The notes beneath the pieces are model-generated. The model did no database searches, was not told where the DNA came from, and saw only the letters and a list, made by a program, of their open reading frames with translations. DNA of 63,987 bases, the filler included, from Dirinaria sp. TL-2023a (lineage: Eukaryota), in the NCBI GenBank assembly GCA_051941275.1. It is 15 parts of 15 records of this genome, joined end to end, with 100 filler letters (N's around TTAATTAATTAA, not from the genome) between each part and the next. Parts side by side here need not be neighbours in the genome. Positions count along the whole stretch, not along the records: positions 43,070 to 47,253 come from JAVEBF010001893.1; 14 more parts are not named here. One strand, 5' to 3'. Of this stretch, positions 40,073 to 48,946 are shown in pieces. Position 1 is the first letter of the stretch. Every line of letters starts with the position of its first letter. The position numbers were made by a program, and so were the translations under genes.

Positions 40073-42342
40073 GATGGTGCTATACAAAAGTTTGCTTTAT
40101 GTGAAGAATAGATAGAGTGTATAGATATTAGGGCAGTAGATGGGGTAGAGAGTGTATGATAGATGATAAAGTGAATCTGTAGAAGCGTTATGCAAATGGT
40201 AGTATGCACGAGACTTTTTCAAATTCAGCTGATGGTGAGAGGGAACAGGAAGTAGGAACGGGGAAGTTTCTTATATACCTAGGAAGGGAAGTTTTCCCTT
40301 TTGTTGAGACCGGTGGCTCACATTTGAGAAAAGTTAAGGAACAGAGGTACCGTGCTCTACTCTCCTGAGAGGGAAGGGTGACTGCCAATCGCGGTCTAGA
40401 GATTTTGAAGCTCGAGCTTTCAGTGTGTGATTCATACTTACGTTGACATGCTGGCTTCGGTGATGAAAAACAGGATTTTTTTGGTTGAGTTGAATTGTAC
40501 CGAGCCGAACCAGGGTTCCGTCTTATATGCTTGAAAAAGTCTTTTTTGGTTCTTCGAAAAGTTAAAACGATGATGGGGATTTTTTTGGCGTGGATGTGGC
40601 GCGAAGGAGGGTGAAGAGTGAGAAAAGAAAAAAAGTGGAGTGACTCAATGAAGTGAGGGGATGATGTTGAGAAGTACATAAGCTGAATTGTGCTCGGATA
40701 GTTGAAAGTCACTAATTGACTGTGATTTGTTTTTATCACCTTTTTTTTTTTCCTCTCTTGAAGAGAGACTTTGAATGTGAAGTCAGAGATTCAAATGAAT
40801 GAATGAACGAGATTGTATTGAAAGAGCTACTTCCCCTTCTAGATCTCGTACTGCCGAGAAGAAGAGATTATATTCATTTATCTCATCGTCAGGGAGCAAA
40901 GACGGAGATTCTATGCTCAGAAAATCGACTGGTCAAAGCAGGATATTCAGATATAAATCATAACTCAACCCAAATCTCAAATTTCACTCAAAAATATCTT
41001 TCTCTGTATTTCTTCCATTCAACCAAAAATACGAGCATCAAATTACACATAACATACTTTCAAAGTGGAAAGTGCCTTGCGTGGCCCCATCATGGTTACC
41101 TCATCTTGTTAGTAAGCAGACGGCTACATGTAGCCAGAGCTTCTGCTCTGAACAATTTATTCTGCTTCTACAGTACCTACAAGAACGCTCACCCTCGTAT
41201 TCCACTTTATCTGTCGACCTTCGATGCGATCAAGTAGTCCTAAGCAGTGGTCGTAAGTCCTTAAGTCTTACGTGTCGATGACTTTGCAAGGGATCGTTTA
41301 CTTGCAATAGACCGTGTGTTCTCAGAGAGTATCGTCGTACACCGAGCTCCCGTTGTTCTTCATACTCCTTTGACTCGCCTGCTCTCTACCCTCATCAACA
41401 TTCGACCGTGTTCATTCTGACCCACAAATCCTGAACTCAACCTCGTCAGCACACACTCCAAAGCCTCTGGCCGTGGAGCTGGCTGAAATATCCGAAGAAT
41501 CCGGTTTTACACCTCTTCTCTAGACTCCCAGAACACCCCGCTTCTAGCTCGAACAGCAATTCTGCATCGTTCGGTTCTGTGAATCTCTGGACTGAATTAT
41601 CTTACAACCACCTCGAAATTTATCATCATCGTTCACATTCCCTGGAACTAGCGAAGAGCCTGTCAGGATTTGTCACCAGCTTCGGATCTGAACCCTGACT
41701 CGACAGATACTACCTCACCCTGTTACCCAACGCCCATCACCCCAGCTGTGGTGGGACCACGGAAGGCACCTTTCCACTTCGTCTAATCTAACTCTAACAT
41801 GTCTTCTTAATCAGCGCCATGATCCGATCCAGAGGTGATTCCGCAATGCAATGCGTCTCAACACAAAGCTTGGTTCGAGATGGAATCAGTAACGCCACAC
41901 CCAGAGAAATCAGGTACGAAGGATATCGTACTTTCCTTAGAGGAGAAGAGACGGCTGCCAATCTCGGCCTGAAGATTCTGAATCTTGGTGGTTTGGTTGT
42001 GTGAGTCATAACATAACATTTTAAAAATATGCTGAGCTTCGGCGATCTTAAGAACATGGAAATTTTGTTTGTTTTGTTGAGCCGAAACTCAACAACAACG
42101 ATCGCGAATGAAAGAGCCGAACCGCGGTTTCCACTCCACGAAGCCAAGGCATGAAGTGAGCCGTATACAAGAAGAAGCATGCTCGCAGTTATTGGGATCA
42201 GATTTTTTTTTCTGCATTTCGTGTGAATTTGAATTATCTTTCGAAATCTCTTGGACTTCTTCTTTGACACATAGATTCCAAGAAATATACCTAAGCAAAG
42301 AGACCAAAAGAAAAGAAAGAAAAAACCACACAAACAAGAAAA

Positions 42343-42969
42343 ATGCACTCACCTCTCTCCTTCCTGCTCCTGCTCCTCCTCACCTTCTTCTCCTCAAGCC
42401 TCGCCCTACAACAACCAGTGTACCCCCTCTCTGGGGCCCTCGGCCCGGACAAAGCACCTAAACCCGCATCGATCCCATCGCTTGGGAACGAAAGATCTCC
42501 AAAAGCGTCTCATCATTATTACTCGGAGCCAAAGATCCAAATGGCGAAGCGTGGTCCCCCGGCATGGATTGCGTCGTGGATCCTTCCTCGTCCCGGAGCG
42601 CCCGTTACGGAGGTATCGACGGCGATCACGACGTCAACTTCTCTTGTTTTCGTGACGGGCACGGTTGGGGCTGGTGATACGACGTTGAAGACGTCGACGA
42701 CGAGGGCAGGTTCAGAAGCGCAGGCGACGACGATAACCACGTCTGCGACTTCTATCGTTGTAGCGACCTCAACCGTGAGCCCGAAGACGTCCTCAAGTAC
42801 CACGCCACAGTTAACGACGTTCACCTCGACGATGACTTCTGTCGTTGTCGCCACGCAAACCGTGGATCCGAAGACGTCACCAAGTACGATCTCACAATCA
42901 ACGACGTCCACCTCGACGATGACTTCTGTCGTTGTCGCCACCCAAACCGTGGATCCGAAGACGTCACCA
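42343..42969 (+). CDS. Secreted Ser/Thr-rich tandem-repeat (mucin/adhesin-like) protein, truncated by contig end
   Basis: Signal peptide MHSPLSFLLLLLLTFFSSSLA and 29-aa Thr-rich repeats. The ORF is open to the linker. Confidence 0.78.
42742..42969 (+). repeat. 87-nt coding tandem repeat (~2.6 copies visible)
   Basis: ACGATGACTTCTGTCGTTGTCGCCAC..GTGGATCCGAAGACGTCACCA at 42829 and 42916, with a diverged copy before them. The unit is TMTSVVVATQTVDPKTSPSTISQSTTSTS. Confidence 0.85.
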
Positions 42970-43150
42970 NNNNNNNNNNNNNNNNNNNNNNNNNNNNNNN
43001 NNNNNNNNNNNNNTTAATTAATTAANNNNNNNNNNNNNNNNNNNNNNNNNNNNNNNNNNNNNNNNNNNNCCACCCATCCATCCACTCCAACCCGCCGCAA
43101 CAATCTTTGCCCAAAAGAAGAAAAAAGGGGGGGAGAGGGGAAAGTCACCC

Positions 43151-44329
43151 TCAAACCTCCATCTGCCCCGCGACATCCTCGTCCCCGGACCCGAAACTGC
43201 CTACGGAACTCATCTCGTCCTCCGACTCGTCTTCGTCGCCGGCTTCATCGGCTGCGTCTTTCGTGGCGAATTTACTCACGTATTCTGTTTTTCATTTGCA
43301 GGTATGTTAGTGTTAGTGTTCTTGGATGATAAGGATAACGGTCATAGGATGAGCCGCGGGGGGGGGAATCAGAGAACCTTTCACTCTCAATTCGTAGGTT
43401 TTGGGATCGCGCATCAGCAGCGCAGCGGCTTCCCCGTTCAGCGGATCGGTCGGGTTCGGGTACCGCAGGAGTTGCGGCAGGAAGACTTCGAAGATGTTGA
43501 TCATGTCGAACATGGGCGACCAGGTCTGGTTGATGACGTCGAGGCAGACGGAACCGGATCTGGATCGGTGGTTAGTCTTTTTGTAAGGGCCTTTTTTGGG
43601 GCAAGGGGCAAGGTTGGGAATGCGAAGGAATAGATGAGCAGAAGATAATTTTATATGAGTGTGTGAGTTTGAGTGTGACAAGAAAGGGGAGCAGAGCCTA
43701 CAGCTCGTCGATATTTGGGTGAAAGATTCGGTTCACAAAGCCAATGCTGGGGCTCTTGTAGGGATACTGGTCGGGTAGCTCGACGTGGATTTTCCAGAGA
43801 CCGCCTTTGAAGGGTGCTAATGAAAAGGAAATGTGAGCACCAGTGGTAGGCATACAGGAAAAGGCTTGTATACTTTCTTCAGGACCCTTGAAGCGGACGT
43901 AGAACTCTTGCCTTTCTCTTTACGTTAGCGAGAACTACCCGGTTGTCGATAAATAACGATTTTCCACCCGCAGCGTACACTGTGCTGCTGTCAATTATTG
44001 ATCCAGTAGTTTCTGTGTACAAGGAGCCACTTGCTGTTATCGTTGACCAGGGTCACCTCGTAGTCGCTCATCAACCTGCACCAACGCTCAGCCACAGTTC
44101 TTTCTTGACGTCTTATGCTCCACCACGGCTCTTCCAAGGGGTGGTATACATCCTAGCTCCTGATCAGTATACGAACAAGCATGAGCAACAGCTTCAGACT
44201 CACTTCATGACCTGTCCACAAGCAAGCGACCTGTATCAGCATGCATTCCTGCTATTTCCCTTCCACGATTGGGTATGGGTTGTGCCAGAGACCTACGTCC
44301 GTCTCTATCCTCCTCTTTGGACTACTCAT
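43151..44329 (-). CDS. UBC8: Ubiquitin-conjugating enzyme E2 Ubc8 (UBE2H) with microexons
   Basis: Proposed exons 44329-44297, 44211-44204, 44152-44150, 44075-44035, 43979, 43911-43874, 43816-43702, 43559-43378 and 43284-43151. These give [79 protein letters not shown] plus an acidic tail. Confidence 0.93.
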
Positions 44330-45335
44330 TGTGCCGCGTGCGGCTTCCCCGCTTTCTTGCTCAACGTTGGATAGGGTTCAGGACGCAGGTGGGCAAGGTT
44401 ATTCGTCTTCGAGTATTGTATCACTGACGAGGTGACCAACAATACACTCATAAACAGAATATGCTTCAACCGCTCTTGTTTTGTTCAAGTAGAACTGGGG
44501 CTGGTATAATAAGCGTTCACTTGGAGTCGTGGAGGCAACAATGTTGAGAGAATACAGCTGGTGTAGAGCAGGCCTAAGCTTCTGACATTGTCTGGATCAA
44601 TATAATGCTGCTTGTTGTTGTTGCCCGATCGACACCTTTTGATGGAGTGTAGAAGTCAGGGTGTGTAGAATATGTACTACTGCTTGGTCAGAGGATTGCA
44701 TGCAGAATGAATGACAAAGGCGTGACCCTGTATGACTCCCAGTGACCTGTGACCACCCGAGCCCGGAAGCTTATGGCGAGCATAAGCGCGAGAATTGTCT
44801 CAACCCCTTATCCCAATCCCCAGATAATGGCCGCCTAGAAGTACCGAGAGTACCTACCTTACTATAGGTACCTAGGGCCGAGGGGGCCCAGGTACCGAGG
44901 CGAGCGAGGGTACCGCCTAGAAGGTGCTCAATATGTCATCGATCACGTGATGCCGAAATTTCCCTGATCGGGCAATTCTCTTCTATCCATCGCACACTCG
45001 CACTGATACGATAATTCACTTCAAACCCCTGGATAACCGTGGAACAAATATCAATAATGGTAAGTACGTATTAAAGATATATTACTCAGGGACCAGAGCT
45101 GCGATGCCTTAGCGGCCGGACTCGCCGGACTACCTTATCCACCCGATCAGAGCCACAGATAAAATCGTAGCCGATTCTCAAGACTGCGCTGCACTCACCA
45201 TCACGAGCTGATTCTTACAAAACTCCCAAACCCCTTCACCGCAACAATGGATCCGGCGTCATCACTGCCATCTGTCTCCTTGGTGGATTTATCTCTACCA
45301 TCTCAAAATTTTCCGAACGAGCCTGGTTGAGTACA

Positions 45336-46505
45336 ATGGCTCAAGTGGTCACTTCAACCCGGCCGCTGCTTCAACGTGCTCTATGTAATAAGCAAAGTCT
45401 TCGAGGATCTGTAGCCGTGCGCCCGGTGACTGTCCCGACCGGTCAGACTCGCCACAGCTCGCACTCCCCCTTGGGCTCGCCGCCGGCGACTCCCAGAAAG
45501 AAGACTACCATCAACACTTTACGCTCGCTATGGCAGAAGCAAGAGCCCATTACGATGATCACGGCACACGACTTTCCTAGTGCACACGTTGCCGACCATG
45601 CTGGCATGGACATGATCCTGGTCGGAGACAGTCTGGCTATGGTAGCTCTCGGCATGGAAGACACAAGCGAGGTAGTACTTGAAGAGATGATATTGCACTG
45701 TCGGAGCGTATCGCGGGCTACTAAGTCGGCCTTTACGGTATAGAGCGCACCTCTATGGGCCAGTCTTCCTTCTCAGGCTAACGTCTGGTCCTAGATTGGT
45801 GATCTACCTATGGGCTCCTATGAGATAGCCCCTGAGCAAGCCCTCGAATCGGCCGTCAAAATTGTCAAAGAAGGCCGAGTCCAAGCCGTCAAGCTCGAAG
45901 GTGGCCTTGACTTCGCACCGACGATCGAGCGTATCACTAAAGCCGGCATACCTGTTCTGGGTCATGTCGGCCTGACCCCACAACGACAGAATGCATTAGG
46001 TGGATTCCGTGTCCAAGGAAAGACAACCGACGGAGCTCTCAAGGTTCTCCAAGACGCTCTCGCGGTCCAAGAGGCAGGCTGCTTCGCCGTCGTTCTGGAG
46101 GCCGTCCCGGCGGAGGTAGCATCCCTGGTCACCAGGAAGCTAAGGATACCGACTATCGGCATTGGTGCTGGTAACGGCTGCTCTGGGCAAGTCCTAGTGC
46201 AGGTTGATATGTCTGGCAATTTCCCTCCAGGCCGCTTTCTACCTAAATTCGTGAAGCAGTATGGCGACGTCTGGAGTGAAAGTATGAAAGCCATCCAAAG
46301 CTATAAAGGTACGTCTATCTATCGTTCTCTTCTATCCTGTCCTACCCTACTTTGACTGTGCTAACATACAATAGATGATGTCAAAAGCCGCGCCTACCCC
46401 GCTCCTGAGCACACCTATCCGATGCCTGTAGAGGAGCTTAATGAATTCGAAAGACTCATCGGCATGCAGCAAATCTCTACATCGCGTGCAGTCGATTCAG
46501 CCTGA
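45336..46505 (+). CDS. ECM31: 3-methyl-2-oxobutanoate hydroxymethyltransferase (PanB), with probable mitochondrial presequence
   Basis: Exons 45336-45737, 45795-46308 and 46375-46505. Motifs ITMITAHD, ILVGDSLAM, GDLPMGSY, VKLEGG, GHVGLTPQ and PTIGIGAG. Confidence 0.95.
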
Positions 46506-48946
46506 CGATCCTAGCACCCATGATTTCAATCTCTAGCTGATGCATCTAACGATCACCATTCACGAAAGCACCTTAGACGCATTGGGCGGCGCGAATCTCT
46601 CGGCATCAACGATGGGTAGGATGGCCTTTTCTTTGCATGTTGCAGTGGCGCGTTTTTTTCACAATCATGATTATCAATGATAGATGAACATTATGAGCAA
46701 TAGCAAAGATCGATAGAAGGATATCACAGCAACTCACACCTATTCACCAGCATTATTGCCTTTTGCATACACCTTCCCCACTTGCGGACCCTTTTATCAT
46801 AATATTTGTATGCCTCCCTTTCTAGGCTCCATTAGCGAGAAACTCATCGAATATTCCACCGTGCGCAGAGAGAAAAAACTCTAGACTCAAATCTCGATCG
46901 AGCCAGTCAGTCAATCACACAGGGTAAGTATATCTCGATCCCTGACTCTCACACTCAAATCTAAAAACGAAATACCTTCCATTCTCCTTTACCTTAGACT
47001 CAATTTCTGGATCGAATCAGAATCAGAATCACACAGTATTATCTCTTGACCCCTCTGACTCTCGGCCCCCTACTCACAATGAGAAACATGAAACCCTTCT
47101 CTGCTCCTTTTAAATCAACACCCTTGAATATCTCCGTTACCTCCGCTGAGGAAAGAGCCTTCCTTTCCCTTCCGCTCATCCATCCCCAAAAACCCCCTTC
47201 CGCCTCCAAAAAAAACTCGCCACTCTTATTTATCGTATTCTCTCCCCGAAAGCNNNNNNNNNNNNNNNNNNNNNNNNNNNNNNNNNNNNNNNNNNNNTTA
47301 ATTAATTAANNNNNNNNNNNNNNNNNNNNNNNNNNNNNNNNNNNNNNNNNNNNGCTCGGGGTAGGCGACCTGGTCGAGAGGAATGAAAGTAAAGTCTAGT
47401 AGGGGATGGTGTCGAGAGGTCTCATCGTATCTCAGATCTCAAAGTGAAGTAGGTCACAGAAGATCTCGTTTGCAGCGTTTTCGCCTTATCCTCGCTCTCT
47501 CCTATCTCTATCTCATGCCGATACTCTTCTTCTTTCGATGCGTCGTCTCCAAGAGTGATAAAATCAAGGCCTAAGCCTTCTTCCCAAAAGGAATGTCTCC
47601 TGGAACTAATCTGCATTAGCCATGCCGGTGAGATCTGAGGATATGTTGCTGACCCATGATCTGGGTCATAGCTCATCTACCACTCAGCATAGCTTCGAGC
47701 TGGAAGCGCAACTCTTCAAATTCAACGCTTGCTTATAATTGTGGTGAGGCGAATATTAAAAATAAGTTCGAGGTAACCTGAACCCGATAGCCGAAGGACG
47801 AAAAAGTGAGGGAGAAGCTGCGGAGAACATGACTCAGCGTACATTCTCCTCTATACATTTGATAATTACGACTCAGTTGCTTCGACGATCGGCAGAAGAG
47901 TAAGATTGCGGTTTTATTCTGCCGTTGCCCGGAGAACCTCTTGGAAGGTGATTGCTGGCATGTCTGTGGTTGCTTCAGGAACCGAATTCGGCCTGGGCAC
48001 ATTGAGCTGTACGAAAACGGAATAGCGCTGGAGTAGGAGTACGCCCGCACATGGTTTGGCGCGCAAGACACTTCTCGACTGCTGGAGGTATGAGGTACCT
48101 ACGATGTCAGTACTTTAAGGTCCATAATGCACTGCTTTGCTAACTTCGCTTTTGGTCCTGACCATTTCCATGCCAGTGTACCTGTAGCCAGCTAGCAGTC
48201 CAAAGAAAACTCTTTAAACCAGCCAGCGCTGCTGGTTCGTCTTTGCCAGAAATCATCGTGGCAATCACTACGAGTTGCGGTTCAAACTACCTCGAAAGGT
48301 CGCCGCTATGATCTATGGTCTATGTTCCGTTAATCAAAGACGCGGTACCTTACGACATCTTGGCTTCATAGGTTTTTGTGTGATTTGTGCTCAATGAGCG
48401 TAGCCAGGTTCGAGCTGTTAAGCAGCTCGTAGACCGCAGTTGTGAACAGCCGAAACTGCCCGTTTACTTTATGGATGGACTAGATCGCTGAATATCGAAA
48501 AGTGCACATTATGATCCTCAAGAGTCTGGAAGTCTTGGTGTCCCCAGCCATCTCTACCAAGGAATGTACGCTGTGGGAATAGCGGTTCGCACCCCTTGCA
48601 GCACGCACGAGGTCCCATTGTAAGAGCTCGTTTCTTGCCATTGGCTCTTGCTATAGTGGTTGCATATGGAGACGAAATTTGCATTCTACCAAAAAATGGC
48701 AGAGCTGGGAAACTTCAAGGGCAGAGGGCATCGAGAGGCTTTCTCTCTACTATTCTCTCCTACTAGGACTCTCTCGCCTCAATGATTGACTGCTCCAAAA
48801 TCAACCTATGTGGCAATGAAAACTATCATACAACGGAAAAAGCACGATCAGACTTGTGATTAATCCTCCCTTGCGAACTTCGTCTGCAGTAGGAGCTTCC
48901 TGAAAAGCTCTGCAGCTGGTGCAAAAGCAAGGATAGATGCACAAGC

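Follow-up and report, generated by a model that had tools for sequence, protein, structure and literature searches.

A one-nucleotide exon very probably splits a methionine codon in the UBC8 gene of Dirinaria sp. TL-2023a

Can a single base, with an intron on either side, be a regular exon of a conserved nuclear gene? This question is raised by an intron-rich gene for a ubiquitin-conjugating enzyme (E2) of the UBC8/UBE2H type, located on the minus strand (44329 to 43151) of a 63,987-nucleotide (nt) stretch of DNA, filler included, from Dirinaria sp. TL-2023a (GenBank assembly GCA_051941275.1). This whole stretch is referred to as the window, and its positions 43,070 to 47,253 come from JAVEBF010001893.1. 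A preliminary description, made from the sequence alone, had proposed that one Met codon of the gene is divided over three exons, the middle exon being a lone T at position 43979. The proposal was followed up using RNA contigs, orthologous loci and public gene models. The combined evidence makes it very probable that this T is a real and constitutively included one-nucleotide exon, whose two flanking introns are spliced separately.

A lone T between two complete introns

The minus strand of this region reads ..GATAACA/GCAAGT..TTGAC..CACAG/T/GTACGC..CTAAC..GAAAG/GCAAGAG. Re-reading of the sequence bore out all coordinates that had been proposed, i.e. an upstream intron at 44034-43980 (55 nt), the T at 43979 and a downstream intron at 43978-43912 (67 nt). 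The GC-AG ends ascribed to the upstream intron were also recovered, with GC read at the donor in the window. A branch site had been claimed for each intron, and one motif per intron was located (TTGAC and CTAAC), placing branch-like A residues at 43991 and 43925, which are respectively 11 and 13 nt before the ends of the upstream and downstream introns. Each flanking intron has its own donor, branch-like motif and acceptor (i.e. GCAAGT, TTGAC and CAG for the upstream intron; GTACGC, CTAAC and AAG for the downstream intron) and a workable length. As the six other introns of this gene range from 51 to 142 nt, the flanking introns are ordinary in size. Within the 123-nt interval separating the neighbouring exons, 43979 is the sole T out of 28 with an AG before and a GT after it, and is the only AG-N-GY site.

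Inclusion of the T restores the sequence VNDNMQEFYV and produces nine exons encoding 184 amino acids (aa), whilst omission results in a frame that stops after 68 aa, so that both coding consequences expected of the T were reproduced. The 184-aa product aligned over residues 1-184, with 91.3% identity and 0 gaps, to a 184-aa protein of Psora testacea (P0008). Within the conserved VNDN-M-QEF hairpin, the Met codon would be split such that a 41-nt exon ends in the A, the T forms an exon by itself and a 38-nt exon starts with the G. A mature mRNA containing the T would read ..AACATGCAAGAG.

RNA contigs contain the additional base

Fourteen sequencing runs were matched, of which four, from one lichen-metagenome sample and at 0.14-0.16 of words, were recorded as RNA; runs X6-X14 each had a 0.04 share of words. 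RNA was compared for X1, X2 and X3 (one lichen-metagenome sample) and for X5 (another study and another organism). Contigs of 1020 nt from X1 and 955 nt from X2 were spliced and 95-99% alike to the window. Both matched in six pieces, i.e. 44450-44295, 44075-44035, 43911-43874, 43816-43702, 43559-43378 and 43284-43100. The joint between 43911 and 44035 omits 123 nt with CT..GC ends on the plus strand, and its two sides are separated by one letter, an A on the plus strand and hence a T on the gene strand. Both pieces adjoining this joint (43874-43911 and 44035-44075) exhibited 0 differences from the window. The junction of this near relative's mRNA therefore reads ..AACA-T-GCAAGAG, as predicted, and an alternative donor that would produce NDNSKQEF was unused. 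In X1 and X2, one RNA base lies between two exons and is contiguous with neither of them in the genome.

The X5 contig was <90% alike to the window and had 39 letters between 44035 and 43816, corresponding to exons of 1 and 38 nt. These letters begin with TG CAA GAA on the gene strand, encoding Asn-Met-Gln-Glu, such that the second study also reads A/TG CAA GAA at the predicted junction. The X3 contig (<90% alike) spanned positions 43705-43802 only, outside the junction. A single excision can only join a prefix of the genomic sequence to a suffix; as neither ..AACAT nor TGCAAGAG occurs in the window, two excisions around a retained T are the only route to the observed RNA.

Conservation of AG-T-GT in fungal orthologues

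Conservation was examined by scanning metagenome contigs with a 60-aa peptide of exon 8. Eighty loci were obtained, and the flanking exons were found by script in 76; the other four loci had no upstream part and were left out. Two introns with AG-T-GT at the Met codon were present in 50 of the 76 loci, in an interval of 103-175 nt that starts with A/GT and ends with AG/G. In all 50 loci there were at least 46 nt on either side of AG-T-GT, with upstream introns of 46-87 nt and downstream introns of 50-95 nt. A check of this arrangement in UBC8 orthologues had been proposed at the outset, and AG-T-GT was present in 50/50 intron-bearing loci. These loci comprised 42 distinct sequences and 31 clusters at ≥70% identity. 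The median pairwise identity of the intervals was 0.59, indicating that the intron sequences themselves are unconserved.

A shuffle control was performed on 43 orthologous intervals (the window included), requiring AG-T-GY with at least 40 nt on both sides. Such sites occurred in 504 of 8600 shuffles (5.9%) as compared to 43/43 of the real sequences. The accompanying splicing signals were also maintained, with a pyrimidine at -3 of the upstream acceptor in 42 of the 43 sequences and a G at +5 of the downstream donor in 41. Nearly all upstream introns contained a CTRAY-type branch motif 8-19 nt before the AG; in one locus (L072) the motif was 27 nt away.

A contiguous ATG was found at this codon in 25 of the 76 loci, all of which encode a single M. 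Fifteen of these had an uninterrupted coding sequence and were mostly short and transcript-like, with one on a 41-kb contig. The other ten (i.e. L009, L033, L034, L040, L045, L051, L057, L067, L069 and L071, the last on a 147-kb contig) were genomic and had kept other introns. One locus, L017, exhibited the upstream phase-1 intron alone (A/GTCAGT..GAGCAG/TG, 47 nt; positions 2623-2712 of a 10.9-kb contig), the downstream intron being absent, which indicates that loss of one intron does not require loss of the other.

Structure of the UBC8 gene and its other very short exons

The complete gene consists of the following features.

44297..44329, minus strand: coding part of exon 1, with the ATG at 44329; covered by RNA contig piece 44295-44450
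44212..44296, minus strand: intron 1, 85 nt, GTAGGT..ACAG; absent from the RNA contig
44204..44211, minus strand: 8-nt exon GTCATGAA; extra letters in the RNA contig and 34 distinct orthologous sequences
44153..44203, minus strand: intron 2, 51 nt, GTGAGT..CTAG; from the gene model
44150..44152, minus strand: 3-nt exon GAT (G of a Lys codon and AT of a Met codon); from the RNA contig and orthologues
44076..44149, minus strand: intron 3, 74 nt, GTATAC..GCAG; from the gene model
44035..44075, minus strand: 41-nt exon, whose last base is the A of the split Met codon; 0 differences in the RNA contig
43980..44034, minus strand: upstream intron, 55 nt, GC-AG, GCAAGT..CACAG; branch-like TTGAC at 43994-43990 and RNA joint CT..GC on the plus strand
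43979, minus strand: very probable one-nucleotide exon, a T that supplies the second base of the split codon A/T/G (Met); from RNA contigs, the unique AG-N-GY site and 43/43 sequences
43912..43978, minus strand: downstream intron, 67 nt, GT-AG, GTACGC..GAAAG; branch motif CTAAC at 43928-43924
43874..43911, minus strand: 38-nt exon, whose first base is the G of the Met codon; 0 differences in the RNA contig
43817..43873, minus strand: intron 6, 57 nt; from the RNA contig and gene model
43702..43816, minus strand: 115-nt exon with the HPN motif region of the UBC fold; from the RNA contig and Pfam UQ_con (E 1.4e-12)
43560..43701, minus strand: intron 7, 142 nt; from the RNA contig and gene model
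43378..43559, minus strand: 182-nt exon with the conserved Cys of the UBC fold; from the RNA contig and Pfam UQ_con (E 5.2e-14)
43285..43377, minus strand: intron 8, 93 nt; from the RNA contig and gene model
43151..43284, minus strand: last coding exon, with an acidic tail and the stop codon TGA at 43153-43151; from the RNA contig and gene model

The UBC core fold is represented by matches to PF00179 (UQ_con) in exon 8 (E 5.2e-14) and exon 7 (E 1.4e-12), and a FHPNIDE stretch was read in the predicted protein. The best named protein matches were annotated as 'Ubiquitin-conjugating enzyme E2 8' or 'E2 H', with 93-98% identity over exon 8. Orthology to proteins with these names is accompanied by an acidic C-terminal tail, and the product is a UBC8/UBE2H-type ubiquitin-conjugating enzyme of an ascomycete, with predicted enzyme activity. 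Many of the best named relatives of this protein derive from lichen-forming fungi and, judged by these closest matches, the host is probably a lichen-forming fungus.

Two further very short exons are located upstream of the lone T. The RNA contig contains nine extra letters between 44295 and 44075, which match the 8-nt and 3-nt exons, and the GAT at 44152-44150 is the sole AG/GT-flanked GAT in its interval. Both exons were kept in 34 distinct orthologous sequences in addition to the window. They were fused into one 11-nt exon in six sequences and joined to exon 1 in four. In a transcript-like locus, L019, the sequence is the one predicted by splicing in the 8-nt and 3-nt exons found in its relative L022. 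The one-nucleotide exon would therefore be the extreme of an intron-dense 5' half of the gene that also holds the 8-nt and 3-nt exons.

The region 3' of the gene has two other features. An open frame on the plus strand (42295-43017) has a signal-peptide-like start followed by Thr/Ser-rich repeats (..TSTSTMTSVVVATQTVDPKTSP.. twice) and ends in an N mask; its product is possibly a secreted, mucin-like wall protein. Pairs of 44-N runs occur at a spacing of ~4.3 kb from 4233 to 60164 of the window. The nearest pair (42970-43013 and 43026-43069) lies immediately 3' of the stop codon of UBC8 and interrupts this neighbouring open frame. Rather than assembly gaps, these pairs resemble intentional masking.

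Taxonomic range and errors in public gene models

The best named protein matches were informative on taxonomy for the Tuber-like (L019 and L022) and Hyaloscypha-like (L010 and L028/L030) loci only, as the E2 core is too conserved for other loci to be placed in this manner. L022 is genomic, encodes a product matching a Tuber protein at 155 of 160 residues and carries the 8-nt, 3-nt and one-nucleotide exons. The nearest pairs of complementary DNA-like and genomic loci are relatives (91% for L010 and L030; 86% for L019 and L022), meaning that the junction is supported at the genus rather than the species level. We infer that the arrangement is common to such distant lineages as the Tuber-like fungi and the lichen-formers.

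A survey of gene models was performed for the 120 best relatives of the UBC8 protein. Only 28 were correct at the junction (i.e. ..ND[NS]-M/L-QEF). A further 26 contained ..EVTLVND[NS] followed by a different sequence, nine began or resumed at QEFYV, and 57 lacked both motifs, mostly due to a truncated N-terminus. The broken models bear names from Lecanoromycetes, Leotiomycetes, Pezizomycetes, Geoglossomycetes, Sordariomycetes and others. Two of these models could be compared to transcript-like sequences. Tuber indicum P0099 and L019 were identical, including the variable tail, save in two places where P0099 has one Leu missing (the 3-nt exon) and SE in place of M (the one-nucleotide exon). 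Hyaloscypha finlandica P0075 and L010 differed at the 3-nt and one-nucleotide exons, the 38-nt exon being frameshifted, and also by three substitutions in the C-terminal tail. On these sequence comparisons, both P0099 and P0075 are read as wrong at the 3-nt and one-nucleotide exons. Models of Pseudogymnoascus reading 'NDNMYA..' were at first interpreted as a sign that the upstream intron is absent there; this interpretation was withdrawn, as removal of the upstream intron and read-through of the downstream intron gives the same peptide.

It is moderately likely that the A/T/G split and the 3-nt and 8-nt exons are ancestral to Pezizomycotina and have been selectively kept in Tuber-like Pezizomycetes, Leotiomycetes and lichen-forming Lecanoromycetes.

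Alternative explanations of the junction

The junction could also be produced with one GT-AG intron that uses an alternative donor (AA/GTGGCT) and the same acceptor, generating NDN-SK-QEF, i.e. a protein one residue longer and no one-nucleotide exon. This solution is in frame (185 aa, with SK for M), is of the type picked by gene predictors (e.g. NDNSEQEF in Tuber indicum P0099) and has a GT or GC at the same offset, 4 nt into the upstream intron, in 40 of 43 sequences. This recurrence is, however, explained by the normal donor, whose G at +5 and T at +6 form the GT, and the bases that follow are unrelated between sequences (GTGGCT, GTCGGA and GTCAAC). The resulting insert would be variable (SK, SE, SM, ST, SQ, SW and others), whereas a single M is invariant in 25/25 intron-less loci, and none of the 43 sequences has a single-intron solution giving exactly one residue. 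As the RNA contigs of X1, X2 and X5 all read M, and L019 reads M where the otherwise identical P0099 has SE, a single intron with this donor is highly improbable. The window copy being a frameshifted pseudogene or containing an assembly error with a missing base, and the RNA having come from an intact copy or a single-intron relative, is an explanation that we regard as barely credible. It draws on the uniqueness of the GC donor among the 43 compared sequences and on the origin of the RNA from other strains, but is at odds with the integrity of all nine exons, which encode a full-length protein provided that the T is retained, and with the 0 differences from RNA in the exon pieces beside the junction. 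Moreover, the same 'defect' and its AG-T-GT rescue would have to recur in 42 distinct sequences whose introns are unalignable (median 0.59).

The one-nucleotide exon remains the preferred explanation, and several points weigh against it or against its proposed breadth. At the upstream donor (44034-44033), the window has GC as compared to GT in 42/42 distinct relatives. Agreement of GCAAGT with the consensus at +3 to +6 makes usage of this GC donor plausible, and the C may be genuine, or may reflect an assembly error or a strain variant. The RNA consists of assembled contigs of relatives rather than of this strain, with X1 and X2 representing one sample; as rare isoforms are lost from contigs, NDNSKQEF may exist as a minor isoform. 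The taxonomic breadth is derived from similarity of contigs to named proteins and from broken named gene models, not from named genomic DNA. A second candidate GC donor, in Pyrenodesmia, was considered on the basis of 'NDNSK' in P0013 and dropped, since Ser is encoded by AGT as well as by AGC and the protein model hence does not discriminate GT from GC.

Order of the two splicing reactions

Intron definition is usual for short fungal introns. Each of these short introns would be recognised across itself, in two separate reactions. The two introns would be removed one after the other, as the AG of the upstream acceptor occupies -3 and -2 of the downstream donor and the upstream branch point lies ~12 nt from this donor. 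The authors of the Arabidopsis case argued along similar lines (PMC4674806). The preliminary description had spoken of 'ordered, intron-defined splicing', and we likewise infer an order of the two reactions from the arrangement of the signals. The upstream intron would leave first, joining ..AACA to the T, and the downstream donor would then be used, as in recursive splicing.

This upstream-first order is mildly favoured. Following removal of the upstream intron, the exon side of the downstream donor is no longer AGT but CAT (33 sequences) or TAT (10 sequences), and the match of this donor to a generic textbook consensus rises in 43/43 sequences. A pyrimidine at +3 is found in 18/43 downstream donors as compared to 6/43 upstream donors. 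Both observations lean weakly to removal of the upstream intron first; a point against this reading of the consensus gain is that it follows near-automatically from the geometry, with YAG/T being replaced by CAT or TAT. The alternative, that the one-nucleotide exon is real and either the downstream intron is removed first or there is no fixed order, is a serious if lesser possibility. Guo and Liu, whilst proposing sequential removal for a plant one-nucleotide exon, cite the 9-nt exon of potato invertase, where the second intron leaves first (PMC4674806). The weak evidence opposing the alternative is the excess of +3 pyrimidines in the downstream donor, and an exon-side context that improves only after upstream removal.

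Relation to known one-nucleotide exons and similar systems

One-nucleotide exons had been described as rarely documented. The kind is indeed rare, and examples are already published for a plant and for fungi. In Arabidopsis, APC11 contains a constitutive one-nucleotide exon with an AG before and a GT after it, on which the reading frame depends and which the database had annotated wrongly (Guo & Liu 2015, PMC4674806), all of which are features shared with UBC8. This exon, an A, sits 333 nt into a formerly annotated 422-nt intron and was proven by base substitution in a minigene; the authors propose intron definition with one-after-another removal of the introns, and report rice APC11 paralogues without these introns (PMC4674806). 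APC11 is thus a plant case with minigene proof and narrow conservation, whereas UBC8 is a fungal case supported by RNA contigs and sequence from 31 clusters.

A closer parallel is CYP621A of Fusarium, where a one-nucleotide exon G (AGGGT) was reported for a rarely expressed P450 in 20-24 genes of one genus, with read support from the SRA, and presented as the first fungal case (Nelson & Syed 2026, PMC12940212). CYP621A and UBC8 are both fungal nuclear genes in which the exon contributes the second base of a codon within a conserved motif, AG-N-GT is conserved and automated models are wrong. UBC8 differs in having a T rather than a G, in being a housekeeping E2, in a range extending from Tuber-like to lichen-forming fungi and in the adjoining 3-nt and 8-nt exons. 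An earlier record than this 'first fungal case' is a long-read annotation of Coprinopsis cinerea, which counted 13 one-nucleotide exons spread over as many genes and noted that omission of micro-exons breaks gene models (PMC12230235). In the available text, this count is a genome-wide tally for a basidiomycete without conservation analysis and with the genes unnamed; a word search of five supplement files for UBC8 and 'ubiquitin-conjugating' found neither term (PMC12230235).

Other systems bear a more distant resemblance. Stwintrons of Pezizomycotina involve two consecutive splicing reactions at one place, and orthologues can have introns 1 nt apart after loss of a partner (Fekete et al. 2017, PMC5587772). 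L017 recalls this 1-nt shift, in that a canonical intron is left 1 nt from the position of its partner (PMC5587772). In a stwintron, the donor, branch point or acceptor of an external intron is split by an internal one, such that the external intron arises only upon the first excision, and no base remains between the two. A stwintron was ruled out for the window, as both introns have complete, uninterrupted GC/GT..AG signals in the unspliced sequence and a coding base remains. In the ratchet points of Drosophila, an acceptor and a donor are juxtaposed and the 5' splice site is reused after the first ligation (10.1101/006163); these mediate stepwise removal of very long introns and leave no base, whereas the UBC8 introns are 55 and 67 nt and leave a coding base. 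A zero-nucleotide recursive splice site of this type was ruled out on the same grounds, i.e. one retained base and introns of 55 and 67 nt. One-base exons between organellar introns have also been reported (PMC5436844, PMC12308204), and involve different introns. No literature linking UBC8 or UBE2H with a fungal micro-exon was found in a search that mostly did not extend to subscription journals. The UBC8 exon hence joins a rare, already known class, and what is new is the gene and the unusually wide conservation.

Significance

Three aspects set the UBC8 case apart: its wide conservation within a housekeeping gene, the presence of 3-nt and 8-nt exons nearby, and the systematic annotation errors that it causes. 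One-base exons escape most gene predictors and spliced aligners. A curated rule for UBC8 would fix a conserved housekeeping protein in many fungal genomes, and the gene can serve as a benchmark for micro-exon-aware annotation.

A conserved, constitutive and highly expressed one-nucleotide exon, flanked by two introns of ~60 nt and adjoined by exons of 3 and 8 nt, is a tractable case for studying the order of splicing, the steric limits between neighbouring spliceosomes and the reach of pure intron definition. Loci with both, one or no intron at the Met codon provide material on intron loss and on apparent 1-nt intron shifts; a straightforward way for introns to 'slide' by 1 nt would be the independent loss of one or the other flanking intron. 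If the arrangement is ancestral to Pezizomycotina, no one-base exon known would be older or more widely conserved; UBC8 models across a large share of published ascomycete genomes would contain a systematic error, and the exon would provide a natural test bed, in a housekeeping gene, for how the spliceosome deals with an 'undefinable' exon.

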